NCBI GenBank assembly: GCA_965243025.1
Contig: CBDETY010000003.1
Location: 320,001 to 384,000 of the forward strand
Reading direction: 5' to 3'
From: Candidatus Latescibacterota bacterium
GTDB lineage: Bacteria; Latescibacterota; UBA2968; UBA8231
DNA length: 64,000 bases
Shown here: positions 7,596-24,712 of the stretch, one piece after another
Layout: every line of letters begins with the position of its first letter
How positions within the stretch are numbered: the stretch's first letter is position 1
The notes under the pieces: generated by a model
Database searches by the model: none
What the model was told of the DNA's origin: nothing
The model's input: the letters and a program-made list of their open reading frames with translations, nothing else
Position numbers and translations under genes: made by a program

Positions 7596-8534
7596 ATGAA
7601 ACGTTTCACCATCCCCGGGGTCGCCGCCGCCGCGGTCTTCGCCTTCACGAGCGCCGGCAACGCCCACGTAGGCGACATCGTCTACCCGATTTACGAACTG
7701 CCGACCAGCGATCTGCCCGACATCTTCGACGGCTCGCTCGAAGACTGGGAGGACGTGCTTCCGGGCACGGAGCTGACCCACGACGATTTCACCCCGCTGA
7801 ACGTGGGGGAAGCCGCCGGAATCGACCCTGAGGATTCCGCCTACCGCGTCTACCTGGCATGGCACAGCGCCGGCCAGCACGTCTATGCCGCCGTCGAGCG
7901 CATCGACAACGTCTACATCAACACCTACGAAGGCGGCAACGTGCACATCCTGGCCGCCTACGACGATGTCGAGTTCCATCTCGACGGCGACCACACCGGC
8001 GGCCAGTACAACTTCTGGCTCGAGGCCGACGACTACTCGGAAGAGGAGTTCAAGCTGCTCCAGAACTATCAGGCGCAGCAGTACGTGATAATCGCCGAAT
8101 CTCCGGACGGACAGATCATCGGCTACCAGGGGAACGGACTCGGCTGGGCCATCGATCCGCCGTACACGGATGCCGGCGGCACCGCCTTCGGCGAGGATCC
8201 CGTGACGACGATCGTGGAGTTCTACGTCACCGCCTGGGACGAGATCAACTGGCAGGGACCGCACCTGTCCAAGCGCTCCGAGCTCGTGGGAGGCAAGATC
8301 ATCGGCCTGCAGGTAACCATCGCCGACTACGATGCCATCAACGAGGAGGGCGGTACCGTGAGGCGCGGGTTCCATACCCTTTCCGGGCAGGACAACACCT
8401 GGATTTACGCAGAGAGGTTCGTCGACGCCGAGCTCATCCCGTGCGATACCGGTGATTGCGGAGCCGCGGCCGAGCCGCTTCCGACAGCGGTCGAGGAGGA
8501 CAGCTGGGGGCGCATCAAGGCCACGTTCAAGTAG
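7596..8534 (+). CDS. Secreted acidic CBM9/DOMON-like protein with C-terminal TAVEEDSWGRIKATFK motif
   Basis: GAGGAG RBS; signal peptide (..AGNA/H); DGSLEDW, YLAW, DDVEFHLDGD and IGLQVTIADYD resemble CBM9-like beta-sandwiches. Confidence 0.75.
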   Translation: MKRFTIPGVAAAAVFAFTSAGNAHVGDIVYPIYELPTSDLPDIFDGSLEDWEDVLPGTELTHDDFTPLNVGEAAGIDPEDSAYRVYLAWHSAGQHVYAAVERIDNVYINTYEGGNVHILAAYDDVEFHLDGDHTGGQYNFWLEADDYSEEEFKLLQNYQAQQYVIIAESPDGQIIGYQGNGLGWAIDPPYTDAGGTAFGEDPVTTIVEFYVTAWDEINWQGPHLSKRSELVGGKIIGLQVTIADYDAINEEGGTVRRGFHTLSGQDNTWIYAERFVDAELIPCDTGDCGAAAEPLPTAVEEDSWGRIKATFK

Positions 8535-8627: not shown

Positions 8628-8662
8628 AGAAGGGGGGGGAGTTTCCCCCCCTTCTTTGTTTG
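8628..8662 (+). terminator. Rho-independent terminator-like hairpin
   Basis: AGAAG-G7/8 ... C7-TTCT stem followed by TTGTTT. Confidence 0.65.
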
Positions 8663-11230
8663 GTGACGGGAGCGAAACGGGTGCAACGGGTTTTTCCGGG
8701 TCTCGCCGTCGCGGCAGCCCTGGCCGTACTGCCGGGGGCCGGCCCCGGCCAGTGCCAGCTCACCAGCCTGCGCATCCCCGGCGACATCGAGTGGAAGCGG
8801 GCCCAGCAGCTTCCCTTCAACCCGGGGGGCTTCTTCGAAAGCGTCGACTTCAAGATCGAGGACGGAATCGCCCCCCTCGACACGGCGCGCTGGGTTCCAC
8901 TCCCCGCCATCCCCGACTCGATCGTCTCCGCCTCCGACTTCGGCTTTGCCGACCGCCGGCTCTTCGACGCCTTCACCCGGCACGTGTCGCGCGACCGCGT
9001 CCTGGCGCGGGCCGAGGTGGTCGAGGAGGGGGCCGTCACCGTCGAGGCGGGAGGTCTGCTGCTGTCCCCGAAAGAGGACTTTCCCCGCACCGTGGCCGGG
9101 GTTCGCCGGTTCCGGGCGGCCGGCATCGACAGCCTGCGCGCCATGGTCAACCTGGCGAATGCCGTCCTCGTCCCGATCGATCCCCAGCTTCTCTTCAGCA
9201 ACTGGCTGCGCTCTCCGACGATATACGAGACCCAGCTGACCAAGGGCCAGGAACAGGCCCTTCTCGAGGCGCTGATCGACGCGGATCCGGAAAACTCCTT
9301 CCGCCGGGTGGACGGCCAGAACCGCCCGGTGCGGAAGCGCTCCGTCGTCATCATCATGGACCTCACGCGCCGGTTTCCGGTCGGCATGGTGCGCTTCTAT
9401 CCCCGGGTGGAGGAAAACCCGCTTCCCATCGCCGGATACAAGCTCGAGGTCCACGACGGGGTCACCGTGAAGCGGGGGAGGGGGGAGCGGATCGCCGAGC
9501 GGGATTTCCTCGGCTTCGGGGGGGGTGCGGAAGCGTCGGCGGGAACGGTGCCGGTGTTCGAGCAGCTGATAATCGACCAGAGCAATACCGAGGACACGGT
9601 GGCGGTCCGCTTCGACGAGCCGGAATACCTTCAGCAGTTCAAGTTCCGCTCCCTGACCGGCCTCGATTTCGACATCGCCGAGTTCGAGGTCTTCAACGAG
9701 GGGTTCACCCCGAAGGCCGTCTACCTCGGGAAACCGCTTCCGGTCGATCCGGCCGGGATCGATGCCATGCTGCGCTACCTGGGCGGCGATCTCTCCCTGC
9801 GGGCCGAGCTCGACCTTTTGCAGGGCGGCACTCTCGGCCGCGTTTCCTGGGATGAGGAGAAGATCGGCGACCCCTCGGCGTCGTCGGCAGCCGTCAGCAT
9901 GCAGACCGGGTTCACCCCCGAGCCGTGGATCCCGATCCGTCTCAACCGCAACGGCGACGCCGTCGAGTGGCGCCCGGACGCCGAGGTGGTGGACCGGCGC
10001 GCCGGCAGTCCCGGCCGCGGAGAGCTCGTCAACCTCGACGATCCGCTGCTGCGGGCCGGCGCCCGCGACGTCTGGAACGCCCTTTCCGACGAGGAGCGCC
10101 TCGTCGCCCGCACGACGTTCCCCGAGTATAACGACCCGGCAATCGTACCGGTCGCCAACAAGCGGACCCGTGCCGGGGAAGTGCTGCCGATACTGCCCGA
10201 TCCCCTGTTCTGGAGCGGATTCCAGCCCCTGGTGAACGGAGAGCGGGCGCAGCTTCCCGGAGAGCGTCCCTTCTTCCAGCTCCGGGTCGACTTCACCAGC
10301 TCCGACCCGGGCGCGGCCACGGTCATCCGCAACCTGCGCATCGAGCAGCTGCTGCCGCCCCTGCTGCGGGAGGTGCGGGCCGAGATCGTGCCGGCAACGG
10401 AGGTGACGGCAGGTATCGACACCCTGTTCACCTACGCGCTGCGGCCCCGGTTGCGGCCGGGCGACCCCGGTTTCAACCGCATCCGCATCCCCACGCCGAC
10501 GCGGATATCCCGGGTCCGGAGCGTCCGCTTCGCCTACGGCCTCGACGGCGTCGAACGCTCGCAAGAGGTCGCGTTCGAGACCGTGGCGAGCGAGGAGGAC
10601 CTGTTCGTCCTCGGCGTTCCCAGGGTGGAGCCCTCGATTGCGGCCGGGGACTCCCTGGTGGTCCTGATCGAGTTCCGCGCCCGCGTCCTCGACGTCAAGA
10701 CCGATTTCACCGGGCACGTCTTCCTCGACACCCTCGGCGCCGCCGAGGGGACCGATTACGGCGGCATCATCACCCTGGTCGGCGGCGGCGCCGACACCCT
10801 GGCGACCATCCTGCCGCAGCGGGTCATGGCGGGGGATGTCCTGTCCTTTCCCGGGGAGCTGTCCGACCGCAATTCACTGGCGGTGGTTACGAGCGTCGCA
10901 CAGCCGGTCGAGGAGGTGATCTCGCGGGTCGGGATCGCCCCGAATCCCTTCACTCCGAACGGGGACGGAATCAACGACTCGGCGGCCATCACCTTCGACG
11001 TCCTGCGCGTGGTCGAGTCGGTACCGGTGACCACCGAGCTGTTCGACCTTTCGGGACGGCTGATCCGCAAATGGGACGCGGAGCGAACCGTCGGCAGCTT
11101 TTCCGAAACCTGGGACGGCAGCGGGGCGGACGGCCGGCTGGTGCCGCCGGGACTCTATCTGCTCAAGCTGAAGAGCGCGACCGACAGCGGCGTCTTCGGG
11201 TCCACCCTGACGGTGTCGGTCGTCTACTGA
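8660..11230 (+). CDS. Large secreted protein A with FlgD-Ig/CHU_C-like C-terminal domain
   Basis: Signal peptide; C-terminal PNPFTPNGDGIND..FDLSGR..WDG..PPGLY..VSVVY. Start uncertain (TTG 8660 or GTG 8681). Confidence 0.85.
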   Translation: MVTGAKRVQRVFPGLAVAAALAVLPGAGPGQCQLTSLRIPGDIEWKRAQQLPFNPGGFFESVDFKIEDGIAPLDTARWVPLPAIPDSIVSASDFGFADRRLFDAFTRHVSRDRVLARAEVVEEGAVTVEAGGLLLSPKEDFPRTVAGVRRFRAAGIDSLRAMVNLANAVLVPIDPQLLFSNWLRSPTIYETQLTKGQEQALLEALIDADPENSFRRVDGQNRPVRKRSVVIIMDLTRRFPVGMVRFYPRVEENPLPIAGYKLEVHDGVTVKRGRGERIAERDFLGFGGGAEASAGTVPVFEQLIIDQSNTEDTVAVRFDEPEYLQQFKFRSLTGLDFDIAEFEVFNEGFTPKAVYLGKPLPVDPAGIDAMLRYLGGDLSLRAELDLLQGGTLGRVSWDEEKIGDPSASSAAVSMQTGFTPEPWIPIRLNRNGDAVEWRPDAEVVDRRAGSPGRGELVNLDDPLLRAGARDVWNALSDEERLVARTTFPEYNDPAIVPVANKRTRAGEVLPILPDPLFWSGFQPLVNGERAQLPGERPFFQLRVDFTSSDPGAATVIRNLRIEQLLPPLLREVRAEIVPATEVTAGIDTLFTYALRPRLRPGDPGFNRIRIPTPTRISRVRSVRFAYGLDGVERSQEVAFETVASEEDLFVLGVPRVEPSIAAGDSLVVLIEFRARVLDVKTDFTGHVFLDTLGAAEGTDYGGIITLVGGGADTLATILPQRVMAGDVLSFPGELSDRNSLAVVTSVAQPVEEVISRVGIAPNPFTPNGDGINDSAAITFDVLRVVESVPVTTELFDLSGRLIRKWDAERTVGSFSETWDGSGADGRLVPPGLYLLKLKSATDSGVFGSTLTVSVVY

Positions 11231-11256
11231 AGGCCGGTGGAGTGGAGGGAGTAAAG

Positions 11257-14200
11257 ATGAGAAGACTGCTGGCCGCCGCGGCGATCGCCACTGCTCTGGC
11301 CACGGAGGCGCCGGCGCAGACCGGGGAGGCGTTCGAGTTCGACGGGACGGGCCGGCGGATCGTCGTCGACCGGGAAACCCACTGGCGCAGCTGGGTGTAC
11401 CAGAACAACCTGGTCCGGGACGTGCGCGCGCCGATGGACTCGACCGGCCTGTTCGACTTCTCCGAGGGCGTCGTGCCCCGCTACTTCCCGGCGGTCAGGA
11501 ACTACGTCCTCGACCGGGAGGAGTTCAGCTTCGTCGACAACGTGCGCTTCCGCGGGCAGACGGTGACGGTCACCGGTCAGATCACCGCCCTGTCCAACGA
11601 CGCGCTGGCAGGGCGCGTCGGCGACGGAGACCTGACGACCTTCTGGGAGCCGTCCAGCGCCGACTTCAACGCCGAGGGGCTGCGCAACTGGCAGCTCCTC
11701 GTCGACCTCGGGCGGGTGGTGTTCGCCGACAGCATCGTCGTCCACTTCCCCCCCGCCGGAACCGGGGAAGACCTCGGCGACGCCCCCAAACTGTTCACCG
11801 TCGAGGTGTCGATGGGAATACAGGCCGGGGCCAGGGAGTACCACTTCGACGTCGTCGGCAGACAGTCGGTGTCCGGAAGCCAGCGCCGTTTCGTCTTCCC
11901 CCTGAGACCCCTCGACCAGGCCGACGCCGATCTCGACGGGGAGCCCGACTTCGAGGGAACCTTCGTGCACTTCGTCCGGCTGGCCGTCTTCGACAGCGAC
12001 CTCGATGCCGCCGAGCTGATCGGCGAAGGGGAAAGCGGGCGCGAGGCCTACGAGGCCCTGGCACCGGAGCGGCGGGGCATGCGCATCTTCCAGCGGCGGA
12101 CCGCTGGCGACTTCGTCAAGCGCATCGATCCCCTGCTCGGGGACGGCGGGGACACCCTGCAGACCGCCGAAGAGACCTACCTCTCCCTTCCCGATCCGGA
12201 ACGGGGTCCGATCCAGTACTTCAAGCGGGAGCTGCCGCGGGTATCCGAGATCGAGGTCATCGGCCGCGGACCGAACCTCGCGTACCGGCCACAGCGCCGC
12301 GCCGGGGCCGCGTACGAGGACGGCGGCAAGGGCGCCCCCCTCAACGCCGTCGACGGGGTCTACCTGACCAACTGGAACGGCAACGCCTGGGACCTGTCGT
12401 TCTCGAGCGGATTCGCCGGCCACGGAGATCTCGTGTTCGGCACCATGTGGCTCGATCTCGGGGCGACTTTCTGGATCGACCGGATCCTGCTCGGCATGGT
12501 GCCGGTCAGCGAAACGGAGACCGGGGGGATCCTCTTCGGCTGGTACCTCGACGGGTCGGACGGCACCGTCCTGCGCGCCCTCGACATGCGGACCCCGGAG
12601 GATTTCATCCAGCTCGAGAAGAGCCTGGAGTGGAGGGACCTGGTCAGCGATGTCTACAAGGACAACAACACCGCCCGGGTGCGCATGATGGCCGAGTCCT
12701 TCGAGCTGCGCAAGCTGCGCTTCTTCCAGCAGCGCAACGACGACCCCACGGGGCGTTTCTCGGGCACCTACGGGGCCGCCGGCCACTTCAACGAGCTGCA
12801 GATGTTCGGGCGCGGCTATCCCGCCGAGGTCAGCTTCACCTCTCCCGAGATCGTGCTGCTGCCGGGGGTCGCCAGGGAGGAGGCGGCCGGCGTGCGCGAG
12901 CGCCGCGTCCTGTCGGAAATCCGCTGGGAGGCGGAGGCCGTGGTGCGGGAGGTCGATCCGCAAACGGGGCAGGCCGTCGAGAGGACCGGGCCCCTCGACC
13001 TGAACCCGGCGGTGGAGCTGTGGCTGCAGACACGCACCAGCGACACCATCGACTCGCTGTTTTCCTACTTCCAGGTCGCCACCACGGGCACGAAGAGGCG
13101 AGCCGAAGTCGAGGTGGCCGACTACGAGGCGCTCGTCGAGCTGTGGGAGGTGTTCCGCACCTGGGAGGCCCTTCCCGAAAGCGCGCAGATTACCCTCCGC
13201 GATCACAGCGACGGCGACGATGACGGGGACGGGGTGGCCAACGAGGATCCGATAGACGGGTTGGACAATGACGGCGACAAGCTCATCGACGAGGATGCGG
13301 GGGAAGGGGAGACGGGCGGGCCCCAGTCGATTCGCGGAGCCGGGACCATCGAGCTGACCAGGCACCAGCGCCGCCAGGACGACGACGGGGACGGCGCCGA
13401 GGACGAGGATCCCATCGACGGGATCGACAACGACGGCGACTTCCTCGTCGACGAGGACGGGAAGAAGGCGGCTCAACCCCGCCAGGAAGCCGAGCGGGTG
13501 GTGACGCCGGTTTTCGCCGGTTGGAGCGCCTGGAGCGAGCCGTACAAGGCAATCGGAACCGAGGCGAGGGCGGAGATCACCTCCCCGAGCCCGCGGAAAT
13601 TCCTGCAGGCCCGGGTCACGATCCGGTCCGAGGATCCCGAGGTCACCGCGCGCATCCGCTCCCTGAGGGTTGACCTGGCCGTGCCGATCAGCACCGACCT
13701 GGCCGGAGAGCTGGCGGTGCTGACCGACGCCGGCCGGCAGCTGAGCGGCCTTGCGGCGGCGCCGGAGGATTACAGGGCGCCGCAGGGCGTCGAGCCGCTG
13801 GAACGGACGCCGTACGCCTTCTTCGTGCGCGCCGCCGGGCCGGACCCGAACGCACCGGAAGCGGCCGGGGGGTTCGACGAGATCCTGCTGCTGACCCCCT
13901 CGCAAGCCCGGCTGACCGGGTTGCGCCTGGGACGGGTGGCGGTCGAGGATCTTCCCGGGGCCGAGAGCAAGGCCGAACGCCGGGCCGAAGGGAGCGTCTT
14001 CGAGCGCGCCTTCCTGCCCGGGGAAGGGGACGGCCGTTTCCGCGACGGCGAGGGCAACGAGCTGATCGCAACCGCCTCGGGCGACTCGCTGCTGCTGCGT
14101 TTTCCCGGGTCGGTGAACGCCGGGTTTTCGGAAAAAGAGAACGCCCTCGTCGAGCTGCGCTTCGAGACCCGGACCCTGAGGGCGGGAAGCGAGTTCGCCG

Positions 14201-14643
14201 CCCTGGTGCGCAACGCCGCCGGCTCCGGCGTTTTCCAGCGCGTCGAGTCCGAGGGGCGGGACGCCACCGAGCTGGTGGACAGCGGCACGGCGCGGCCGGG
14301 TATTCTGCAGGCCGGCGAGATCGTCGGCGGGATCCGCGTTCCGGAGGTGTTCACCCCGAACGGAGACGGGGTCAACGACCTGCTCCATATCGAGTTCACC
14401 GTCCTGACGATCCGCGAGGACCGCCCGGTCGAGGTCGCGCTCCACGACCTCTCGGGCCGGCGGATAGCGAAGGCGACGCCGCGGGGCGGGGCCGGCAAAA
14501 CCCGGAGCGGGACCGTGAGCTTCACCTGGGACGGCAGGGCCGGAGAAGGGATGGCCCCGCCCGGGATCTACATCGCCCGAGTGCGGCTGAATACGGACGC
14601 GGAGGATTTCGAGGCGGTGCGGCTGGTCAACGTCGTCTATTGA
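11257..14643 (+). CDS. Large secreted protein B with Asp-rich Ca-binding-like repeats and FlgD-Ig/CHU_C-like C-terminal domain
   Basis: ATG 11257 after GGAGGGAG; signal MRRLLAAAAIATALATEAPA; discoidin-like DGDLTTFW..VDLGR; DNDGD repeats; PEVFTPNGDGVND..WDG..PPGIY..VNVVY. Confidence 0.87.
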   Translation: MRRLLAAAAIATALATEAPAQTGEAFEFDGTGRRIVVDRETHWRSWVYQNNLVRDVRAPMDSTGLFDFSEGVVPRYFPAVRNYVLDREEFSFVDNVRFRGQTVTVTGQITALSNDALAGRVGDGDLTTFWEPSSADFNAEGLRNWQLLVDLGRVVFADSIVVHFPPAGTGEDLGDAPKLFTVEVSMGIQAGAREYHFDVVGRQSVSGSQRRFVFPLRPLDQADADLDGEPDFEGTFVHFVRLAVFDSDLDAAELIGEGESGREAYEALAPERRGMRIFQRRTAGDFVKRIDPLLGDGGDTLQTAEETYLSLPDPERGPIQYFKRELPRVSEIEVIGRGPNLAYRPQRRAGAAYEDGGKGAPLNAVDGVYLTNWNGNAWDLSFSSGFAGHGDLVFGTMWLDLGATFWIDRILLGMVPVSETETGGILFGWYLDGSDGTVLRALDMRTPEDFIQLEKSLEWRDLVSDVYKDNNTARVRMMAESFELRKLRFFQQRNDDPTGRFSGTYGAAGHFNELQMFGRGYPAEVSFTSPEIVLLPGVAREEAAGVRERRVLSEIRWEAEAVVREVDPQTGQAVERTGPLDLNPAVELWLQTRTSDTIDSLFSYFQVATTGTKRRAEVEVADYEALVELWEVFRTWEALPESAQITLRDHSDGDDDGDGVANEDPIDGLDNDGDKLIDEDAGEGETGGPQSIRGAGTIELTRHQRRQDDDGDGAEDEDPIDGIDNDGDFLVDEDGKKAAQPRQEAERVVTPVFAGWSAWSEPYKAIGTEARAEITSPSPRKFLQARVTIRSEDPEVTARIRSLRVDLAVPISTDLAGELAVLTDAGRQLSGLAAAPEDYRAPQGVEPLERTPYAFFVRAAGPDPNAPEAAGGFDEILLLTPSQARLTGLRLGRVAVEDLPGAESKAERRAEGSVFERAFLPGEGDGRFRDGEGNELIATASGDSLLLRFPGSVNAGFSEKENALVELRFETRTLRAGSEFAALVRNAAGSGVFQRVESEGRDATELVDSGTARPGILQAGEIVGGIRVPEVFTPNGDGVNDLLHIEFTVLTIREDRPVEVALHDLSGRRIAKATPRGGAGKTRSGTVSFTWDGRAGEGMAPPGIYIARVRLNTDAEDFEAVRLVNVVY
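13216..13458 (+). repeat. Two copies of the DDDGDGxxxEDPIDGxDNDGDxLxDED peptide repeat
   Basis: Read from the translation of 11257-14643. Confidence 0.85.
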
Positions 14644-14737
14644 GCCGGGTATGGTACCTGCGCGCGTAAATGAGCGTTGCGAACGAGGATGTCTGATGCG
14701 GGATGCAGGGCGGCCGAATTCAGGCGGAAGTGCGCGC

Positions 14738-14757
14738 GCCGGCATTTGTATGCCGGC
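14738..14757 (+). promoter_or_regulatory. Intergenic inverted repeat GCCGGCAT-ttgt-ATGCCGGC upstream of the RBS of 14779
   Basis: Perfect 8-bp stem; function unknown (mRNA stabiliser or operator). Confidence 0.35.
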
Positions 14758-14778
14758 ATTCACAAGGGAGGGTTTAGC

Positions 14779-17556
14779 GTGAACGAGCGAGGCAAGGGAG
14801 CCGGCGGGCTCCTCGTGCTCCTTGCATTCTGTACCCTGGCGGCGGCCCCCGTTTCCTCCCGGGAGGACACGGGAACCCGGCTGGGGGTGCGCCGCGGGGG
14901 GGAGGTGACCTTCGAACCCTACGGCCCCGGCGTCCTGTTCGGGGCTCTCGACCCGGCCGTGAAGAGGTGGTACGTGCCCCAGGAGCTGTTCAACGACTTC
15001 GGCTGGAACCAGTGGGAGTACACCAACTACGCCCGCCGGCAGTTCCAGCGCTACGTCGACTCCGACATCGAGGGGGACTACTACTACGACGTCTACGGCC
15101 GCTTCCTGACCAAGGGCTGGCTGCTGTTCAACTGGACGGTGTCCGAGCCTGAGGCCGCCGGCAGCCGGCTGTTGAAGACGGGGCAGTTCAGCCAGTGGTT
15201 CAGCAACCTCGTGGTCGCCTCGGACTCGAAGGGCCAGTACTTCGCCGCGGCGACCGTGGGCAACCAGATCCGCACCACCCTGACGCCGCTGACCTTCTCC
15301 AAGCCGCTTTTCGACGGCATCCAGATGGACATGGCCTCCGACAAGTACAGGGTCACCGCCATCGCCTCGCGGCCGAGCGGCTTTCGCAGCCTTGCCGGCG
15401 CCCCCAACGAGAGGTCGAACGTCACCAACCTCCTCGGCGGCCGGGCGGCGGCGCAGATCGGGGACTTCGTCGAGCTCGGCGTTACCTACGTCAACGCCTT
15501 CAACGCCCGCACCCGCGGCCAGGCGTTCCAGGGCAATCCCTTCCGCGGCGCCCTGACGGAGGCCCAGAACGCCGACATCACGCAGGTGCAGATCCGCCTG
15601 AGCGACGACTCCCCCCAGGACCCGGCGGGGGCGGCCTTCTTCCTCGAAGAGGTGATCATCACCGACAAGGACGGCAACAGGATCTCCAACCGCCGGCGCC
15701 TCGAGCAGAAGGACGGCAGCCTGAGCCCCGTGCTCGAGTACTCTCCCATCATCGAGGGGGGCTTCCAGCGCGAGGGTTTCCGCACCGCCGACGGCCGCGA
15801 GACGATCACCCTGCGCTACGAGTTCGACGGACCCGACTACCGGGCCGCGGGGGTAGGGCCCCAGCCGGCGGAGATCGCCGCGGTCGAGTTCCGCCTGCTG
15901 CTGGCCAACGACTACCGCATCGACGTCACCTCGAACAACCAGACCAACCAGCTCAACCAGCCGGTGTTCCTGTCCGAGGGCATGCCGGAACGGACCATAC
16001 GGGCTCCGGGCAACGTCAGGGACGGCTCCAACCAGCGCTTCGTCCGCATCGAGTACGGGCTGCCCACGGCCAACGAGATCTACGGCTTCACCCTCGAGTC
16101 GACGGGCGCCCTGGGTTTCGACGTCAACGCCGAGTGGGCCCGCAACCGGCGGCACAAGCGGTTTCCGAGGTTCGCCGAAAACGACGCGACGAAGAACCTC
16201 CACGCGGTGGAGGAATCCGACGCCTGGATGATCAACGTATCGCGGCAGTCTTACCCGTTCTTCCTCTTCGGCGAGGCGTACAGCATGGCCCCGGACTACA
16301 GCACCAGCTCGTACCTCGCCAGCCAGCGCGGCGACACCGGCCCGGTGGACTACGACTCGCAGTCGCAGGGGGTGTTCGAGCTGGTCGACGACAACGACGA
16401 CCAGGACCGCCTCCCCGACTGGCAGCGGGTGGGATCCGGCCTCTCCGCCGACCGCTTCGTGTTCCCGGGCTGGGACGAGAACAACGACTTCATCGCCGAC
16501 TTCAACCAGAACAACGTCGACATCGTGCGGCCCAACCTGAAGCCGGACTGGGAGGAGCCCTTCCTGCGCTACAACGTCGACCGGCCCGAGTACCTGTTCG
16601 GAGTCGACATGAACAACAACGGCGTCGCCGACCGCTTCGAGAACGACGACGAGCCCGACTACCCGTACAAGCGGGACCGCCGCGGCTTCAACGTCTACGG
16701 AGGCGCCTTCCTCGGACCCTGGACGCGGCTGACCGTGGGCCGCCTGGACGAGAGACAGCTCGCCGACGACCGCGCCAACGAGTCGACCTACGCCCTGCTG
16801 ACCTACGAGCGCGACTTCGCCGGCGCCGGGCAGGTGCGCGTCTTCGAGAACCTGCGCCGCGTCAGGGACGACATAAAGGACAACCTGCTGGTCTGGCACA
16901 TCGCCGACGGCATCGCCGGCGAGATCGTCCCCCGCGTCGACCCGCTGCCGATGCGCGACGCCTGGGCGAACACCCTGTACGCCCAGTTCGACCTCGGGCG
17001 CTGGGAGTCGCTGAACTTCACCAGCAAGGTCAAGCACGAGTTCATCCGCCAGGTCGGCTTCGAGGAGTTCCGCGCCGAAAACAGGGTGCTCGCCAGCGAG
17101 GACGTGCGCGAAACCGCGAGCTTCTTCGGCCTCGTCAACAAGGTGGACTACACCCGGGAGTACCGCGGCCTGCTGGTTCAGCCCCGCTGGAAAAGCGAGT
17201 TCCAGCGCAGCGCGCCCTCCCTGAAGGAGAGCCAGTTCGAGCGCGCGACGACGGAGCTGCGGGAGTCGGTTTTCCTGATCGTCCGCATGCCGGTCCTGTC
17301 GCGCAGCTCGGTGCAGCTCGGGGCCGAGTACCTGTGGATGAAACAGTTCCGGGACAGCGCCAGGAACACCCTGGCCGGCTCGCCTCGCAGCGAACTGGTC
17401 GGCGCCCTGCAGGTGCTCAACCGCACCCCTTACCAGGGGTACGAGATCTTCACCGAGTACGGCCTGCGCGTCTCGAGGATCGACATCGAGTTCCTCGAAG
17501 GGGCGCGCACCGAGACGTTCCTCTTCTTCGCCATGTACGCCGGTTTCGGGAGCTGA
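14779..17556 (+). CDS. Large predicted outer-membrane protein (about 925 aa), unknown family
   Basis: GTG 14779 after GGGAGG; signal peptide; central Asp/Asn-rich loops (VDDNDDQD, DENNDFIAD, DMNNNGVAD); amphipathic beta-strand C-terminal region ending TFLFFAMYAGFGS. Confidence 0.8.
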   Translation: MNERGKGAGGLLVLLAFCTLAAAPVSSREDTGTRLGVRRGGEVTFEPYGPGVLFGALDPAVKRWYVPQELFNDFGWNQWEYTNYARRQFQRYVDSDIEGDYYYDVYGRFLTKGWLLFNWTVSEPEAAGSRLLKTGQFSQWFSNLVVASDSKGQYFAAATVGNQIRTTLTPLTFSKPLFDGIQMDMASDKYRVTAIASRPSGFRSLAGAPNERSNVTNLLGGRAAAQIGDFVELGVTYVNAFNARTRGQAFQGNPFRGALTEAQNADITQVQIRLSDDSPQDPAGAAFFLEEVIITDKDGNRISNRRRLEQKDGSLSPVLEYSPIIEGGFQREGFRTADGRETITLRYEFDGPDYRAAGVGPQPAEIAAVEFRLLLANDYRIDVTSNNQTNQLNQPVFLSEGMPERTIRAPGNVRDGSNQRFVRIEYGLPTANEIYGFTLESTGALGFDVNAEWARNRRHKRFPRFAENDATKNLHAVEESDAWMINVSRQSYPFFLFGEAYSMAPDYSTSSYLASQRGDTGPVDYDSQSQGVFELVDDNDDQDRLPDWQRVGSGLSADRFVFPGWDENNDFIADFNQNNVDIVRPNLKPDWEEPFLRYNVDRPEYLFGVDMNNNGVADRFENDDEPDYPYKRDRRGFNVYGGAFLGPWTRLTVGRLDERQLADDRANESTYALLTYERDFAGAGQVRVFENLRRVRDDIKDNLLVWHIADGIAGEIVPRVDPLPMRDAWANTLYAQFDLGRWESLNFTSKVKHEFIRQVGFEEFRAENRVLASEDVRETASFFGLVNKVDYTREYRGLLVQPRWKSEFQRSAPSLKESQFERATTELRESVFLIVRMPVLSRSSVQLGAEYLWMKQFRDSARNTLAGSPRSELVGALQVLNRTPYQGYEIFTEYGLRVSRIDIEFLEGARTETFLFFAMYAGFGS

Positions 17557-17561
17557 CGGTC

Positions 17562-18308
17562 ATGACGGTTCGAGCCATCTGTCGGGCCGCATGCGCGGCG
17601 GCGGTCTTTCTCGCCGGCGCCTGCGCCTGGAAACCTTACGCCGGGGAGCTGCGCGCCAGCTCCGAGGAGCGGCAGGCGGGCGGCACCACCGTTGCCGACG
17701 ACGGCACGGTCACCTTTGTCCGCGACCGCCTCGAGGTGCGGCTGCGGCCGGTCAGCGACGCCGAGCTCGAGCGCCAGTTCGGGGGCGGCGGCCAGGGTCC
17801 GGAAAGCGAGAACCCGTTCACCTTCGGGGGCACCCGGGACGTCTACTCCGGCAGCCGCCAGCAGCGGTTCACGGTGTTCCTGCTCGGGATCAAGAACTAC
17901 CAGTATCCCAAGGTCCGCCTCGACGGGGAGGTCGTCGTCGAAGCGGACAACGGCCGCAAGTACTACGATCTCTCGGAAAGCCAGCTGGACCGCTACTTCC
18001 GCGCCTACGCCATCGGCTACCGCGGCAACGAGTACGGGGTGTACAAGGAACGCCGGGCGGTCCTGCAGTCGACGATGTTCACCCGTGCGGAGGTCTTCAG
18101 CGGCCAGGAGACGGAGGGGTACCTGCTGTTCGAGCCGTTGCACGGCGACGTTTCTGAGATGACGGTCGTCGTCAGGAACCTCGTGGTCCGCTTCGACTAC
18201 CGGGGGGAGCCGGTCGAGTCGATCGAGGCGCGCTTCCGCTTCGAGCGCGACCTCGGGCGGCAGTACCCCGACGGCACCGTGAAGCTGTCGGAAGGGGGAG
18301 GGGAATGA
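17562..18308 (+). CDS. Hypothetical lipoprotein (248 aa)
   Basis: ATG 5 nt after the upstream stop; MTVRAICRAACAAAVFLAGAC lipobox-like signal; 3' part of track ORF 15195-18308. Confidence 0.8.
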   Translation: MTVRAICRAACAAAVFLAGACAWKPYAGELRASSEERQAGGTTVADDGTVTFVRDRLEVRLRPVSDAELERQFGGGGQGPESENPFTFGGTRDVYSGSRQQRFTVFLLGIKNYQYPKVRLDGEVVVEADNGRKYYDLSESQLDRYFRAYAIGYRGNEYGVYKERRAVLQSTMFTRAEVFSGQETEGYLLFEPLHGDVSEMTVVVRNLVVRFDYRGEPVESIEARFRFERDLGRQYPDGTVKLSEGGGE

Positions 18309-19741
18309 GGCCGGGTCTCCTGCCGGCCGGACTCCTGTGGCTGGCGCTCCTTGCCGGTTGCGGGAGCCGCGGACAGGAAGAGGGGCCGCTGGTCGAGGTC
18401 GGGGAAGAGGGGATCGCCGCCGCCGACTTTCGCGAGTACCGCGACCGCCTGCCGGAGAGCTACCGGTCGCCCGCTGGGGAGGATGGGGTCAGGAAGCTGC
18501 TGCAGGCGCTGGTCGACCGCGAGGTCATGGTGCTGGAGGCCGAGCGGCTCGGCTATCACGAGGACCCGGAATTCCGCGCCCGGCGCCATAGGCTGACCGT
18601 CGAGCGGCTCATGCAGGAGGTGCAGCACGACGAGTTCGGCGGAGACCTCCGGGTCACCGAGGAGGAGATCCGCAGGATCTACGAAGAGCGCCACTGGAAC
18701 AGGAGGATCCTGCCGGCGCACATCGTCTGCGCCTCGCAGGAGGAGGCGCGCGAAGTCATAAGGCTCCTCGACGAGGGGCGGGATTTCCACGAGCTGGCGC
18801 GCGAGCGGTCGCTGGCCGCCGACGCCGCCGGCGGGGGGTTTCTCGATCAGTACTTCGCCCCCGGGGATGCGATGGGGAACCTGGTGGAGGGAGTCTACGG
18901 ACTTCCCGTGGGGGCGTACACGCCGGAGCCGCTGAAGACCAACGACGGCTGGGAGGTGGTCAAGGTCCTCGACGAGGAGGAGGTGTCCCTGGAGCAGGTG
19001 CGCCCCCGGCTCGCCCGCGCCGCCCACAGGGAGAAGTTCCTCGCCCTGCGCAGGGAGTTCGTCGCGCGCCTGCAGGGGAAGTTCGGGCCTGCTGAAGGGG
19101 GCGCTTCCGGTTCCGGGGGAGCGGCGCCGGAATCGCTCCTGGTCGCCGAGGCGCGCTCCCGCGGCATGGACCAGTCCCCTGAGTACCTGCAGTTCGAGCG
19201 CTCCCTCTACGAGCGCATGCTGATTACCCTGCTGCGGCGCAGGCAGGTCCTGGAGAACATCCCGGTCAGCGGGGAAGAGGTGGAGTCGGCGTACCTGCAG
19301 GAGCAGGAGGAGTTCCGCCTTCCGGCGCGCGTCCAGGGAACGCGCCTGCTGGTCGGGTCCGCCGAACAGGGCCGCGACGTCGCCGGACGCCTCCGCGCCG
19401 GGGAAGAGCCGGAGGTCGTGGCCCGGGAACTGGGGCTGACGCTGGGTCACATACACATCCCCGAGACCGACCCGGCATACCGGAGGTTCGCCGGCGCCGA
19501 GGCCGGCGACGTGGTCGGGCCGGTGGAGGTGCAGTCCCGGTTCGAGGTCCTCCACGTCGATGCCCTCACACCGGCGCGCCTGCGCCCCCTCGAGGAGGTG
19601 CGGCACATGGTGCGCCACCGCCTGCGGCTGCGCCGCATCAACGAGGCGTTCGAGACCTATATCCGCGGCTTGCGCGGCCGCTACGAGGGCGAGGTGACCT
19701 GGCACGACGACCGCATCCGCCGGCTGGCCGAGGGGGCCTGA
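18305..19741 (+). CDS. Parvulin/PpiC-type peptidyl-prolyl isomerase lipoprotein (SurA/PrsA-like)
   Basis: Lipobox LAGC; HIVC..EEA..G.DFHELARERS..GG.L..PLKT..GW; a second degenerate rotamase domain; ATGA overlap with the upstream gene. Confidence 0.88.
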   Translation: MRPGLLPAGLLWLALLAGCGSRGQEEGPLVEVGEEGIAAADFREYRDRLPESYRSPAGEDGVRKLLQALVDREVMVLEAERLGYHEDPEFRARRHRLTVERLMQEVQHDEFGGDLRVTEEEIRRIYEERHWNRRILPAHIVCASQEEAREVIRLLDEGRDFHELARERSLAADAAGGGFLDQYFAPGDAMGNLVEGVYGLPVGAYTPEPLKTNDGWEVVKVLDEEEVSLEQVRPRLARAAHREKFLALRREFVARLQGKFGPAEGGASGSGGAAPESLLVAEARSRGMDQSPEYLQFERSLYERMLITLLRRRQVLENIPVSGEEVESAYLQEQEEFRLPARVQGTRLLVGSAEQGRDVAGRLRAGEEPEVVARELGLTLGHIHIPETDPAYRRFAGAEAGDVVGPVEVQSRFEVLHVDALTPARLRPLEEVRHMVRHRLRLRRINEAFETYIRGLRGRYEGEVTWHDDRIRRLAEGA

Positions 19742-19746
19742 CACCG

Positions 19747-22722
19747 ATGCCGGACCGACGCGGACTCCCCCGCTTCCACCTCGCCGGCGGGCTCGCCCTC
19801 GCCGGGGCTCTCGCGGTCCTGCCCGGCGCCCTCGGAGCCGGCGCCTGGCGCATAGGGGACGGCGGCCAGCCCTGGAGGACGTTTCCCGTCAGCTACCGCC
19901 TCGACGCCGGCGAGGTGTTCAGGCACGACTTCATCTGGGGCGGCCCGCACGCGGTGGAGATCGTCGTCGACGACGACGGCGACGGCCTGGTCGACGAGGA
20001 TCCGGTGGAGATTGTCGACAACGACGGCGACGGGTTGTTCAACGAGGACCCGGCGGACGGCATCGACAGCGACCGCGACGGCCTGGTCGACGAGGACGGG
20101 GTCGAGCCGCAGTTCGACAACGACGGGGACGGCCTGCTCAACGAGGACGGGATGCGCACCGGCGGGGTGGTGTACGAACCGGTCCTGCGCGCCCAGATGG
20201 AGAGTCCTCCTTTCGGACGGTACCCCACGCCGGAGGCGGCAGCCGGCGACCCGGAAGGCCGCGGGACCGGCTGGGGCGACGGCGGCGGGTACGGCTGGGG
20301 GGACGACGACCGCGACGTCAACTTCAACGAGGACGGCATCGACGGGGTCGACAACGACGGCGACGGCCTCGTCGACGAGGATCCCCCCGGGCCCCCGGTG
20401 CCGCTGCCCGGAAGCCTGCTGCAGGTGGTGTTCGCCTACGACGGCGACGGGTACACCGAGGCCGAGCGCCGGGCAATCCCCTTTTCCTGGGACCCGGGCA
20501 GCTCCCTCTTCGTCGGAGAAGGGCCCCGCGGGGAGGTCACCGCCGTTGCCGGGGAACGCCGCCTCAACCCCAGCGACTGGCTGCGGCCGATCCGCCTCGA
20601 CGAAACCCGGAACATCAGCCTGCTGACGGCCGACCGCTTCTACAGCGGGGAGTTCTTCACCGATCCGACCAACTCGTCCAACTGGAACTCCGGGACCGGG
20701 GGCAGCGCCCACGCCGACGCCAGGGGCCACGGCATAGTGGCCGACGGCGACATCTTCACGGCGCGGACCGCCGTCGGCAGGGCGTTCTGGGGGGGCGGGT
20801 ACCACATCCACTTCAACGCCCTCTTCTGGCTCGACCTGATCCGCCTGAGGCCGCGCCCCGACTTCCCGGAGCGCACCCCGACCACCTTCGACATCTGGTA
20901 CGCCGGCGACAGGGAGAGGCATTTCCGGACCAACATCCTTCTCGGTGAGCTGGTGACCAAAATGGACGTCCGCGATCCGATCGTTCCCCGCCAGACGGAC
21001 CGGATCAGGCCGGCGATCAAGGAGTACCGGTTCGGGGAGGGAGAGGAGTTCGACCCGGTGAAGGCGCGCATCCTGCAGTTCGAGAGCTGGATGTCGTCGG
21101 TGGAGTCGTGGGAGCTGGCCGAGTTCCAGGTATACGGACACGGCTACGCCCTCGACGCGGCGTACGCGACCGAGATCATCGACGTGGGCACGGCGCAGCC
21201 GCGGTTCCGCCGCTACTTCGACCCGAACGACCCGGACCGGCCCATCGCCATGGAAAAGATCCAGACCTTCGACGGCGACGACGACGGGAGCATTTCCGCT
21301 TCCGAGCAGGCTACCGCCATGCTCGCAGGGCAGTTCGACCCCGGGGAGCCCGGCAATCCCGTCACCTGGGGGCGGGTGCGCTGGCACGGGCGGATCGAGG
21401 GGGACGGGAATGCCGAGATCCGGGTGCGGTCCGGTTCGACCCTCGATACGCGCATCTACCAGCGCAAGGTGGGCCGGGGATTGCTGTCTCCCTTCGCCGG
21501 CTCCCCCATCGTCGCGGACTGGCCGGCCCCGGGAAGCCGCCTCGACGTCACCGCGTTCCTTCAGCTTTCGGGATTGCAGCGTCCGCTGGTGAGGGACCTG
21601 CCGCTCAACCTCGAGACGGATCTCGACGGCGTTCCGGGGGGATGGACGCCGTGGTCGGCGCCCCTCCCCTTCGCGGCGGGCCTGGTTGAGGCGGAAGCGG
21701 AATCGGGCGGCGTGGCGCTGCCGCTGCCGCCCCTTCACCGCTACATCCAGTTCCGCGTCGATTTCGAGAGCGGCGAGCACAGCGGAGTCAGTCTCGACTA
21801 TATCGAGTTCGATTTCGCCGATCCCGTCGTCAGCCGCGGCGTTCTTGCCGAGATCTTCCCGGCGACCGCGGACGCCCTCGGAAGTCCGCTGCCGTTCCGC
21901 TACGTACTCAGGCCGGACCTGGCCCCCGGCGATGCCGGTTTCGACCGCATCGAGATCGCCGTGCCGTCCCCCGGGGCCGCTATCGATTCGCTGCTGGTCG
22001 ACGATCTGCGCTGGGAGCGCATCCTGCCCGCCGCTCCGGACGGCCTCTCCGAAACCGCTGCCTCCGAGTGGATACGGGAGCGGCTGGCGAGCCGCGCCTG
22101 GCTCGACACCGCCCAGGTCAGCGGCGACCGGTTCGCCGCGGCCACCTGGTTCGACCCGGAGTCGGGATCACACAGGCTCGCCCTCAAGACCCGCCTGCTC
22201 ACCTCGGCGGACTTCCCCCGGGGCCAGGACCGCGAGATCGAAGTGGCCCTGACGACCCCCCTGTTCAGGCTCCTCACCGGATTCGACAGCTGGGTCTCGA
22301 ACCAGGCCGCCGGGACGGACCTGAAGCAGCCGACCCAGCCCGGCAACGCCTCCGACCGCCTGCCGTCGGATGCGGTGCAGGTTACTGTCCCCTCCGCCGG
22401 GCGGGCCCTGGAAATCCGCGGCTTCGCTCCCAATCCGTTCACCCCGAACGGCGACGGCGTCAACGACGCCACCAGGTGGACTCTCGACCTCTTCATGCTG
22501 ACTTCCGCGGCCGGGGTCTCGGTGAGCATCCACGATCTCGACGGGCGCCAGGTGCGCCGGCTCGAGGAGCTGGCATCGTCCGGCCGGCTCACCGTCGAGT
22601 GGGACGGCCGCGACGGGACGGGTGAGCGTGTCCTCCCGGGGATCTACCTCTACCGGCTGTTCGTCGACAGCGACACCGGGGAGGACAACGAGCTGCTGGG
22701 AACGGTAGCCGTAGCCTACTAG
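19747..22722 (+). CDS. Large secreted protein C with Asp-rich repeats and FlgD-Ig/CHU_C-like C-terminal domain
   Basis: Signal peptide; DDDGDGLVDEDP repeats; PNPFTPNGDGVND..HDLDGR..WDG..PGIY..VAVAY. Confidence 0.87.
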   Translation: MPDRRGLPRFHLAGGLALAGALAVLPGALGAGAWRIGDGGQPWRTFPVSYRLDAGEVFRHDFIWGGPHAVEIVVDDDGDGLVDEDPVEIVDNDGDGLFNEDPADGIDSDRDGLVDEDGVEPQFDNDGDGLLNEDGMRTGGVVYEPVLRAQMESPPFGRYPTPEAAAGDPEGRGTGWGDGGGYGWGDDDRDVNFNEDGIDGVDNDGDGLVDEDPPGPPVPLPGSLLQVVFAYDGDGYTEAERRAIPFSWDPGSSLFVGEGPRGEVTAVAGERRLNPSDWLRPIRLDETRNISLLTADRFYSGEFFTDPTNSSNWNSGTGGSAHADARGHGIVADGDIFTARTAVGRAFWGGGYHIHFNALFWLDLIRLRPRPDFPERTPTTFDIWYAGDRERHFRTNILLGELVTKMDVRDPIVPRQTDRIRPAIKEYRFGEGEEFDPVKARILQFESWMSSVESWELAEFQVYGHGYALDAAYATEIIDVGTAQPRFRRYFDPNDPDRPIAMEKIQTFDGDDDGSISASEQATAMLAGQFDPGEPGNPVTWGRVRWHGRIEGDGNAEIRVRSGSTLDTRIYQRKVGRGLLSPFAGSPIVADWPAPGSRLDVTAFLQLSGLQRPLVRDLPLNLETDLDGVPGGWTPWSAPLPFAAGLVEAEAESGGVALPLPPLHRYIQFRVDFESGEHSGVSLDYIEFDFADPVVSRGVLAEIFPATADALGSPLPFRYVLRPDLAPGDAGFDRIEIAVPSPGAAIDSLLVDDLRWERILPAAPDGLSETAASEWIRERLASRAWLDTAQVSGDRFAAATWFDPESGSHRLALKTRLLTSADFPRGQDREIEVALTTPLFRLLTGFDSWVSNQAAGTDLKQPTQPGNASDRLPSDAVQVTVPSAGRALEIRGFAPNPFTPNGDGVNDATRWTLDLFMLTSAAGVSVSIHDLDGRQVRRLEELASSGRLTVEWDGRDGTGERVLPGIYLYRLFVDSDTGEDNELLGTVAVAY
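19969..20385 (+). repeat. About six D(N/D/S)DGDGL(V/F/L)(D/N)ED peptide repeats
   Basis: Read from the translation of 19747-22722. Confidence 0.85.
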
Positions 22723-23081: not shown

Positions 23082-24395
23082 GTGTCTGTTGATTCTATAC
23101 GCGAGAGGTATCGCAGGGTGCGCAACCACTCTCTCGAAATGGTGGCGATGTTGAGTGAGGAGGAATTTTACCACCAGGCCGTGCAGGAGGTGAGCCCGCC
23201 GGCCTGGAACCTTGGGCACACCAACTGGTTCTTCGACGCCGTCATCCTCGGCAGGTACGCCGGGTCCCTCGGGCGGGGCGGAAAGCTGTGGTATCACTTC
23301 AACTCCTACTACAAAGGGGCTGGCCGGCACGTGCGCCAGGCCTGCCGCGGCGCGGTGCTCATCCACGAAGCCCCTCTCCGGAGCATATTGAAGTACCGGT
23401 CCGACGTGGACGCGGTGATGGACCTCCTCCTCGACGGCGACCACGGCGAAGAGTTCGACCGGCTGTTGGAGTTGGGGATCAACCACGAGCAGCAGCACCA
23501 GGAGCTGTTCTACACCGAGGTTCTGCGAAACAGATTCGAGCGCCGCGCAGAAAGCGGGCGCATCTGCGGCGAGTCCCGTGTCCCGGGCTCGGTGGAAATC
23601 CCCCTCCGGTGGGTCCCCTTCGAGGAGACCATAGCAGAGGTGGGCAACGTGGAAGGTGGGTTCGGCTTCGACAACGAATACGGGGTGCACCGGCAATACA
23701 TCCATTCCTTTGCCATGATGAACCGCCCGGTGACCAACGGTGAGTTCATGGATTTCATCGCCGACGGCGGTTACGAGAACTTCGCCTTGTGGCTCTCCGA
23801 GGCCTGGGATGACGGCTCCATGCGGCCGGTGCTCCGGTTGGCGGACCGGGAGATTTTCCCCCGTGCCCCCCTCTACTGGCAACGGATCGACGGCAGGTGG
23901 CAGCAGTTCACCCTGCACGGCTGGCAGGAGACGGATCCCCACGAGCCGGTCTCTCACCTGAGCTACTTCGAGGCCGCGGCCTACGCCAACTGGAAGAGCC
24001 GCGGCGAAGACAGGATCGTGCGCCTGCCCACCGAGTCGGAATGGGAGCACGCCGCCCGGCGCACCGACGCCATGGCGCAGGTGCGCAAGAATGAGGCGGT
24101 GCTTCTGGACGGGGGGGTGCACCGGCCTGCGATGACGCCCCAGGAAGGGGGGCTCAAGCACATGATTGGCAACGTCTGGGAATGGACCAACAGCTCCTAC
24201 CTGCCCTACCCCGGATTTCGGCCCTACGCCGGCGCCATCGCCGAGTACAACGGCAAGTTCATGAGCAACAAGATGGTCCTCAAAGGAGGGAGCTGGGCGA
24301 CGCCCAAGGACCACATCCGCATCAGCTACCGCAACTTCTGGCCCCTGAGCTTCCAGTTCGCCATCCCCGGGTTCCGGCTGGTAATGGAATCATGA
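23082..24395 (+). CDS. egtB: EgtB-like non-heme iron sulfoxide synthase (DinB_2 plus FGE-like domain)
   Basis: SPPAWNLGHTNWFF, FNSYY, LGINHEQQHQEL (metal His triad), FDNE, RLPTESEWE, GNVWEWT, YPGF..EYNGKFM, YRNF; AGGAGG RBS. Confidence 0.8.
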   Translation: MSVDSIRERYRRVRNHSLEMVAMLSEEEFYHQAVQEVSPPAWNLGHTNWFFDAVILGRYAGSLGRGGKLWYHFNSYYKGAGRHVRQACRGAVLIHEAPLRSILKYRSDVDAVMDLLLDGDHGEEFDRLLELGINHEQQHQELFYTEVLRNRFERRAESGRICGESRVPGSVEIPLRWVPFEETIAEVGNVEGGFGFDNEYGVHRQYIHSFAMMNRPVTNGEFMDFIADGGYENFALWLSEAWDDGSMRPVLRLADREIFPRAPLYWQRIDGRWQQFTLHGWQETDPHEPVSHLSYFEAAAYANWKSRGEDRIVRLPTESEWEHAARRTDAMAQVRKNEAVLLDGGVHRPAMTPQEGGLKHMIGNVWEWTNSSYLPYPGFRPYAGAIAEYNGKFMSNKMVLKGGSWATPKDHIRISYRNFWPLSFQFAIPGFRLVMES

Positions 24396-24607: not shown

Positions 24608-24712
24608 CCGGGGCTCTGCATCTACCGGCTGTTCGTCGACAGCGGCACCGGGAAGGACAAGGAGCTGCCGGGAACGGTAGCCGTGGCCTGCCAGACGGGT
24701 CTACCTGTCGGT
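24608..24712 (+). repeat. Degenerate direct repeat, copy B
   Basis: 14 mismatches in about 105 bp versus 22636-22740 (counted by hand); decodes PGLCIYRLFVDSGTGKDKELPGTVAVAC versus PGIYLYRLFVDSDTGEDNELLGTVAVAY. Confidence 0.9.

Follow-up and report, generated by a model that had tools for sequence, protein, structure and literature searches.

A six-gene cassette of an undescribed, many times repeated outer-membrane module in an uncultured Latescibacterota-related bacterium

The surface partners in SusC/SusD systems are held by lipid anchors. In Bacteroidota, type B cargos of T9SS, the type IX secretion system, are described as usually having a shuttle gene directly downstream (PMC12618676, PMC9143113); orphan cargos of type B can use a shuttle in common (PMC12618676), and SprF is disulfide-linked (PMC12635249). 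The TonB/TolA layout of a transmembrane His anchor and an extended linker is set out in a study of vWA-headed transducers (Williams-Jones et al., 2025; PMC12204202), whose authors suggest a possible gliding role for the vWA transducer operons. We analyzed a stretch of 64,000 nucleotides (the window) from a Candidatus Latescibacterota bacterium (GCA_965243025.1, contig CBDETY010000003.1) that contains a run of six genes. The run is a single copy of an undescribed outer-membrane module that this genome repeats many times.

The genes, named A to F, are all located on the forward strand with spacings of 26, 135, 5, -4 and 5 nt: A (8660-11230, 856 aa, start TTG), B (11257-14643, 1128 aa), C (14779-17556, 925 aa, start GTG), D (17562-18308, 248 aa), E (18305-19741, 478 aa) and F (19747-22722, 991 aa). 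An earlier note had described six co-oriented, mostly tightly coupled genes with Sec or lipoprotein signals, and its reading frames and gaps were reproduced. Coding-type bias is present in 6/6 genes (GC3 0.88-0.95, GC2 0.43-0.49). A simple hydrophobicity scan, which is not a signal-peptide predictor, detected a hydrophobic N-terminal stretch in all six proteins and an internal transmembrane window in 0/6; D and E have lipobox-like cysteines (LAGC in E). Since the gene order A-B-C-D-E was found again in relatives, a chance run of open reading frames is ruled out, and the neighborhood conservation on which the earlier proposal depended is borne out by the co-occurrence of the genes across genomes. 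Upstream of A lies a probable seventh member (7596..8534, forward strand) encoding an exported protein of 312 aa from a family of 101 paralogues, some of which have CBM9_1 (CBM9-like) matches. A member of this family precedes gene A in 4/5 orthologous loci holding gene A.

Protein C, noted earlier as a large barrel-like protein, was modeled with AlphaFold2 as an outer-membrane beta-barrel (pLDDT 82, pTM 0.82) with about 26 barrel strands as counted by DSSP. LptD and MtrB have a similar number of strands. In view of the predicted membrane-barrel fold, a soluble protein was rejected. Searched against Pfam, C gave no match at E<=0.1; NCBIfam likewise yielded nothing meaningful, and a profile of the barrel family matched no PDB chain sequence at E<=1. 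By sequence, membership in the PorP family (925 aa, no PF11751 or TIGR03519 match), the TonB-dependent receptors (no match to the PF00593 barrel or the plug domain) and the LptD family (no match) was rejected. Foldseek and VIA returned generic barrels only, none standing clear. The large-barrel matches in Foldseek, LptD and ushers among them, reach TM <=0.30, with Deinococcus SlpA in the top row; rows for TonB-dependent receptors (Z 9.4-9.8) are level with unrelated barrels, and LptD aligns to the model with TM 0.14-0.18. The best named lead in the ESM Atlas, and a lead only, is DUF6029 at 0.89 (weak, recognition 2260). C is thus predicted to be an outer-membrane barrel of an undescribed family, and the earlier assignment of 14779-17556 to no characterized family stands. 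The family has no Pfam entry and no solved relative, and a literature search, with subscription papers and supplements outside its range, found no paper on it or on Latescibacter together with type IX secretion or T9SS.

Two insertions stand out in the model of C. We infer from strand alternation that the beta-rich domain between strands 9 and 10 (15583..16053, forward strand) is extracellular. The other insertion is acidic and rich in Asp and Asn (16288..16677, forward strand, 27% D+N); it separates strand 13 from strand 14 and would be extracellular as well. It is the most conserved region of the protein (mean conservation 0.59, with near-invariant columns) and probably binds calcium. The model does not show a plug of the TonB-receptor type, and confidence is low over the first 72 residues and the first barrel strands. 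Conserved cysteines are absent from the barrel family.

Paralogy links the proteins encoded by A, B and F (28% over 401 columns for A-B, 26% over 400 for B-F and 36% over 127 for A-F); they have the C-terminal ~350-400 residues in common, more than the tail alone. The tail of A (10892..11227, forward strand; PNPFTPNGDG...WDG...PGLY...VVY) scores 23.5 bits against CHU_C and 25.3 bits against FlgD_ig; those of B and F are located at 14305-14640 and 22384-22719, both on the forward strand. Of the earlier claim that three paralogs end in PNPFTPNGDG-WDG-GxY, the paralogy holds and the exact motif fails in B, which reads PEVFTPNGDG. The three tails stay just below the 27-bit cut-offs of CHU_C (23.5-26.2 bits) and FlgD_ig (19.8-26.8 bits) and reach 17-19 bits against TIGR04131 (cut-off 35). 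The CHU_C cut-off is passed by 22/32 homologues. All three proteins are likely displayed on the cell surface.

A, B and F represent three subfamilies of tagged genes, I, II and III, which recur as a trio in 10/12 larger cassettes. B falls into clade II (support 97) and F inside III (support 93, on a long branch) in a cargo tree built with a quick fallback method; the tree leaves A unplaced, and its best BLAST hits assign it to subfamily I. A has 43 homologues, ~40 of them orthologue-like at 45-98%. F5/8 galactose-binding-type domains are found above cut-off in 6/11 type II homologues. B shows a faint F5/8 lectin-like match (PF00754, E=0.077), and no lectin match above cut-off was obtained for A, B, F, the four closest orthologues of B or the 13 type I proteins. 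Acidic DxDxDG repeats occur twice in B and five times in F. Together with the acidic insertion of C, these repeats would suit a static, calcium-stabilized surface lattice or coat in which the barrels are anchors, the trio provides the subunits and a motor serves assembly or turnover only. The fixed composition of the trio, the SlpA match and the high sequence conservation point the same way; even in distant genomes, orthologues of A and C keep 45-84% identity, in line with a structural role no less than with uptake. Nevertheless, we regard a lattice as improbable: the SlpA match is generic (TM 0.30 with rmsd 18 in Foldseek; Z 11.9 with rmsd 8.5 in VIA), such a layer could do without 42 diverged barrels, and barrels without tagged neighbors are common in relatives.

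This genome contains 42 barrel paralogues and 90 type-B-like tail-tagged paralogues; the barrels occupy ~110 kb and the tailed partners ~200 kb of 6.8 Mb. A same-strand type-B-like gene lies within 3.5 kb of 36/41 barrels, compared with a type-A-like gene for 2/41. The type-A comparison is a better control than rotation, which gave a mean of 2.4 against the 36 observed and a maximum of 33 that probably stems from near-zero rotations. Among 60 genomes of the phylum, the barrel, the tail and a transmembrane DUF4159 protein are present in the same 34, the lipoprotein in 33 of these, and all four parts are absent from the other 26; outside this genome the numbers of tails are minimum values, with no more than 78 candidates scored in each genome. 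Because only 10 families have the module and 3 do not, this pattern amounts to few independent events. In one metatranscriptome with a sponge metagenome label, contigs of a related strain were present; being low-depth and spread over all 30 bins, they cannot show transcription.

The close association of barrels and tails bears on the reading proposed by the earlier note, in which C replaces PorP/SprF as the dedicated shuttle and anchor of its tagged neighbors, receives them from SprA and shows them as adhesins without any transport. Each of the 13 type I genes is part of a barrel cassette, porP/sprF is absent directly downstream in the operon, and a PorP-like gene occurs at 0/80 loci of this barrel clade. 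The proposed search of the genome for T9SS parts detected a single SprA translocon (598 bits, cut-off 200) and, above cut-off, two PorU and four ORFs of the PorV family. A genome search with PF11751 came back empty; a direct scan put one ORF exactly at the cut-off of 22.3 bits, and no weight is given to the negative. For its 90 tails the genome has no more than two clear members of the PorV/PorP-like family linked to the cassettes. The absence of PorP-like genes from the cassettes of this clade and the presence of T9SS parts stand; the role given to C is weakened by the separate PorV/PorP-like barrels, the tagless barrels and the motor operons. C has no detectable kinship with PorP/PorV-like barrels (HH-suite probability 0.05), and in most deeper operons the gene for a PorV/PorP-like barrel of ~310 aa separates the tagged gene from that of the giant barrel, so that both kinds stand side by side. 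In two relatives, G052 (~40 near-full-length barrels, one lipoprotein match) and G003, a tagged neighbor was present at 0/8 scattered barrel loci and 0/8 barrel loci, respectively. One shuttle can serve several orphan cargos, and the linkage of the barrel family to an ExbB/ExbD motor encoded outside the window is left unexplained. We consider this replacement of PorP by C rather doubtful.

Lipoprotein D is predicted to form an Ig-like beta-sandwich with a helical insert (pLDDT 87.7). It has no Pfam family, its fold matches are weak (MPT63, ApaG and YjhA, none at E<=0.001), and its nearest named family in the ESM Atlas, DUF4352 at 0.79, is a lead only. E contains two parvulin domains, with PF13145 (63.2 bits), PF00639 (32.9 bits) and PF13616 above cut-off and a faint SurA_N_3 match. 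By these domain matches E is a SurA/PrsA-like lipoprotein chaperone, and the PPIase reported in the run is confirmed as a two-domain parvulin type.

Deeper-branching cassettes place the barrels in operons with TPR-ExbB-ExbD-ExbD genes; a barrel, a TPR protein, ExbB and two ExbD are clustered in 7 genomes from 4 families. These belong to the other barrel clade. C is in a separate, derived clade in which motor genes lie within the flank at 1/80 loci, so that coupling to a motor in trans is an inference. This genome has 7 MotA/ExbB matches for its 42 barrels, a pattern of many receptors and few motors. The DUF4159 proteins carry a transmembrane His in 17/18 cases, followed by a Lys/Arg/Pro-rich linker and the DUF4159 head, and have the layout of TonB/TolA. 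Of the 8 loci retrieved from G003, 7 have a DUF4159 gene flanking the barrel. Our search for literature on DUF4159, with subscription papers and supplements outside its range, found a Pfam database article only.

SprA (SprA_N) is present in 58/60 genomes of the phylum. As 26 genomes have SprA without the motor module, the module is ruled out as a general T9SS motor. The same count speaks against a motor-driven machine for export, assembly or adhesin movement, comparable to Myxococcus Agl-Glt or Oar-type TonB-dependent secretion, with C as the export pore or the moving anchor of the trio. Such a machine would be in keeping with the TPR-ExbB-ExbD-ExbD genes and a transducer with a non-TonB head, which match the vWA transducer operon layout (PMC12204202), and with the lack, in a genome that does encode SprA, of any GldL, GldM or GldN match and of a GldK above cut-off (the controls contained no positive genome). 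The low-confidence first barrel strands would allow a possible lateral gate, and LptD and ushers are among the nearest large-barrel matches (TM <=0.30). On the other hand, barrels that are scattered, diverged and present in dozens suit a diversity of substrates better than a single machine for motility, and they lack conserved cysteines, in contrast to the disulfide-linked SprF (PMC12635249). Such a machine therefore appears unlikely to us.

We tentatively prefer, at somewhat less than even chances, to read the operon as one specificity module of a Ton-like surface receptor or importer that is driven by the proton motive force and has lid proteins delivered by T9SS. The ratio of 42 barrels to 7 motor matches, the co-occurrence of DUF4159, the lectin-type domains of type II proteins and catabolic neighbors argue for uptake. 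Genes around scattered barrels encode sulfatase, rhamnosidase, BNR-repeat, esterase and PhyH proteins (66 hand-picked of 126 neighbors, scanned without a genome-wide background), and at 17/45 full-flank loci the barrel has the DUF6785 membrane protein in its vicinity. Against uptake stand the plug missing from the model, the 27 TonB-dependent receptor matches already in the genome, the want of a lectin match in A, B and F and the position of C outside the motor-linked clade.

In this Ton-like importer, Sec would export all six proteins, and E would escort C, perhaps also the trio, through the periplasm. A, B and F would cross the outer membrane through SprA by means of their type-B-like tails, probably served by a shared PorV/PorP-like shuttle. 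One protein of each trio type would then join C at its extracellular side as a binding or lid protein, with the acidic, putatively calcium-binding segments helping the trio to dock. The ExbB-ExbD-ExbD motor, encoded elsewhere, would open the barrel, with force passing through the His-anchored TonB-like arm with its DUF4159 end, the giant TPR protein and lipoprotein D. Each paralogous cassette would take up a separate solute, likely oligosaccharides or other polymer fragments.

If uptake is correct, the barrels are a second receptor family for active outer-membrane import beside the TonB-dependent transporters, and DUF4159 gains its first role, as the head of a force transducer. With ~40 copies per genome the module might even be the main feeding apparatus of Latescibacterota, a possibility that we judge less probable than the uptake reading. 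If the shuttle and anchor reading is correct, C is a new class of T9SS anchor. Under either reading, type-B-like sorting takes place in a lineage with SprA and without detectable GldKLMN.

Compared with T9SS type B (SprB-SprF, PG1035-PorP-PorE; TIGR04131, PF13585, PF11751, TIGR03519), the module shares the Sec signal with a weakly CHU_C-matching tail, the barrel gene downstream of a tagged gene and a genome with SprA, PorV-family and PorU proteins. It differs in an unrelated barrel of three times the length, a CHU_C/FlgD-Ig hybrid tail under the TIGR04131 cut-off, three fixed paralogue types, undetected GldKLMN and the separate PorV/PorP-like barrel of deeper operons. LptD-LptE-SurA, MtrB, SlpA and FimD/PapC resemble it in combining genes for a large barrel, a lipoprotein and a chaperone like SurA; the similarity ends at TM <=0.30 and identity <=12%, the module has dozens of paralogues, and D weakly matches Ig-like beta-sandwiches, with LptE not among the matches listed. 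The operons of vWA-headed transducers are alike in their TPR and tolQ-like genes, their pair of tolR-like genes and, after these, a protein of TMH-linker-globular build that contains a conserved His; here the head is DUF4159, a giant barrel is linked and the motor lies outside the window (PMC12204202, whose main text does not contain the words Latescibacterota and DUF). With the Ton system and its receptors, including SusC/SusD (PF00593, PF01618, PF02472), the module shares many diverged barrels for few ExbB/ExbD motors, an extended linker on a membrane anchor that carries a His, partners at the surface and catabolic neighbors. It differs from them in having no PF00593 or plug match, ~26 predicted strands compared with 22, a transducer ending in DUF4159, an additional TPR protein, lipoprotein and chaperone, and surface partners that carry T9SS-type tails instead of lipid anchors.

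The six open reading frames at 8660-22722 on the plus strand (genes A to F), with the lengths and gaps claimed in the earlier note, were borne out by an ORF check of the window, and all six show a base bias of the coding type. The products of the paralogues A, B and F share 350-400 C-terminal residues, and their tails matched CHU_C and FlgD_ig slightly below the cut-off in Pfam profile searches; their TIGR04131 score in the NCBIfam search was well below the cut-off. The CHU_C cut-off was passed by 22 of 32 homologues of these tail-tagged proteins. Gene E encodes a lipoprotein with two parvulin domains (Pfam profile search). No family match was found in Pfam or NCBIfam for C (925 aa, 14779-17556) or for the lipoprotein D. 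The 80 homologues of C are labelled as Latescibacterota, Handelsmanbacteria or Gemmatimonadota MAGs, several merely as "bacterium" and one as Planctomycetota.

The AlphaFold2 model of C (83-sequence alignment; pLDDT 82, pTM 0.82) contains 26 membrane strands, the first four of low confidence, with count and closure inferred from the DSSP string. Two insertions interrupt the barrel: a beta-rich domain following strand 9, and an acidic segment, the best-conserved part of the protein, following strand 13; strand alternation in the model puts both outside. Foldseek returned outer-membrane barrels only, with TM scores of at most 0.30 (SlpA, MtrB, LptD), and VIA gave a flat list with porins on top at Z 13. 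Because both searches yielded generic barrels and no close match, C as modelled is a barrel outside every characterised family. D is predicted to fold confidently (pLDDT 87.7), with weak, Ig-like fold matches only.

The source genome (6.8 Mb, 96% complete, 6% contamination) carries 42 paralogues of C (41 longer than 500 aa), 9 of D and 17 of E. Its 195 tail-bearing ORFs, classified by their ends, comprise 90 type-B-like, 91 type-A-like and 14 others. A same-strand type-B-like gene lies within 3.5 kb of 36 of 41 barrels, a type-A-like gene near 2 of 41. BLAST and tree analyses group the type-B-like proteins into subfamilies; B falls within type II and F within type III, and best hits assign A to type I, yet it is unplaced in the tree. 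Types I, II and III occur together, in varying order, in 10 of the 12 barrel cassettes holding at least three type-B-like genes, compared with a mean of 2.3 cassettes and never 10 in 10,000 label shuffles, a statistic to which shared descent from one ancestral cassette contributes and for which one small cluster was merged into III. Every one of the 13 type I genes in this genome lies in a barrel cassette. Other genomes contributed 45 full-flank loci, several of which share a genome: type I was found in 44, II and the PPIase in 41 each, III in 36 and the lipoprotein in 14, and a PorP-like gene in none. The order A-B-C-D-E is preserved in the five relatives examined.

A short way upstream of the cassette lies an IS1-family-like transposase (6361-7473; Pfam/NCBIfam search). 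The exported 312-aa protein at 7596-8534, often directly upstream of a type I gene, has 101 paralogues in the source genome, some with CBM9-like matches, and its WGRIKATFK-type tail is a possible third sorting tail. Pfam searches identified a DUF6785/DUF6784 membrane protein (3385-5316), which may be an inner-membrane partner, and an FG-GAP/ASPIC-UnbV protein (1134-3281); these families lie near the barrel in 17 and 21 of the 45 full-flank loci, respectively. A ~670-aa unlabelled family (e.g. L090:15259-17274) recurs in the vicinity of the barrel at 17 of 80 loci. Downstream, the ergothioneine biosynthesis protein EgtB (23082-24395, above the NCBIfam cut-off) has no relation to the cassette. 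Sequence comparison detected short copies of the 3' end of gene F at 24608-24712 (87% identity) and 39804-39881 (81% identity), the former outside any intact tailed gene and looking like a remnant.

SprA, four PorV-family ORFs and two PorU were above cut-off in the source genome; GldL, GldM and GldN gave no match there and GldK none above cut-off, in a search run with no positive control genome. SprA_N was found in 58 of 60 genomes of the phylum and the barrel in 34. The same 34 genomes contain the tail (E<=1e-18) and a membrane-anchored DUF4159 protein (E<=1e-40), and 33 of them the D-type lipoprotein. Ten families have all four components and three have none, so few independent events lie behind this co-occurrence. 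The barrel module supplements the T9SS translocon rather than substituting for it. The genome's only sprA gene (L003:8197-14388) is located ~4.7 kb from a two-barrel cassette, and a run at L017:1922-13380, encoding PorU, PorV, a type-A-tailed FG-GAP protein and a peptidase-propeller-Omp85 protein, is a probable T9SS attachment cluster.

A midpoint-rooted FastTree phylogeny separates the window's barrel clade from a second, more diverse one. With sites picked by best barrel or lipoprotein hit, genes for a ~1100-aa TPR protein, ExbB and a pair of ExbD proteins are clustered with second-clade barrels in seven genomes of four families, including the source genome (G000:C3 near 6.17-6.19 Mb). Six of the seven additionally encode a ~310-aa barrel, with the tagged gene on one side and the giant barrel on the other. 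This smaller barrel has a match to PorV (E=1e-9); of 10 members of its family, all match PorV_fam (the first below cut-off) and 7 match TIGR03519, and profile comparison found no homology to C. The DUF4159 proteins have a transmembrane His, present in 17 of 18, and a Lys/Arg/Pro-rich linker, a layout shared with TonB, TolA and vWA-headed transducers, the last of which sit after TPR-tolQ-tolR-tolR genes, as described in PMC12204202. In the window's clade motor genes are nearby in just 1 of 80 loci, which counts against a motor link for the window. An operon at L006:6053-13640 encodes a D-type lipoprotein, a PorV/PorP-like barrel, a 1083-aa TPR protein, ExbB, ExbD and a transmembrane DUF4159 protein with no giant barrel, and is a candidate shared motor for the cassettes holding types I, II and III.

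Barrels also occur apart from tagged partners. In a relative (G003) a DUF4159 gene adjoins the barrel in seven of eight loci and a type-B-like gene in none; the single-contig genome G052 has about 40 near-full-length barrels, one lipoprotein match and no type-B-like gene at eight scattered barrel loci. Among 66 hand-picked proteins encoded near scattered barrels, taken with no background control, are sulfatase, rhamnosidase, BNR-repeat, esterase and PhyH proteins. Degradation of polysaccharides is predicted for Latescibacteria (PMC4454575). Of 11 type II homologues, 6 carry F5/8 domains that pass the cut-off; none does so in the window's A, B and F or in the 13 type I proteins searched. Motor-energised capture and import is ranked first, as a tentative reading, because of the barrel-copy and motor pattern, the catabolic neighbours, the polysaccharide-degrader prediction and the F5/8 domains in type II. 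The view of the earlier note, that C fills the PorP/SprF role as shuttle-anchor, ranks second and is rather unlikely; motor-driven export or movement, in third place, is improbable, and a static lattice, ranked last, is the least probable reading. Import and shuttle-anchoring are compatible, since C may both hold the three tagged proteins and transport.

No paper on the barrel family was found in a literature search; the component parts resemble known kinds, but their combination, like the barrel family itself, is undescribed. That the module represents a new class of energised transporter is possible, if doubtful. The multiplying unit is the barrel, whether or not tagged partners accompany it, around a motor operon of low copy number. 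This expansion follows the established pattern of TonB-dependent receptors, many around few motors (PMC11658791), and departs from the one-to-one pattern of shuttles (PMC12618676, PMC9143113).
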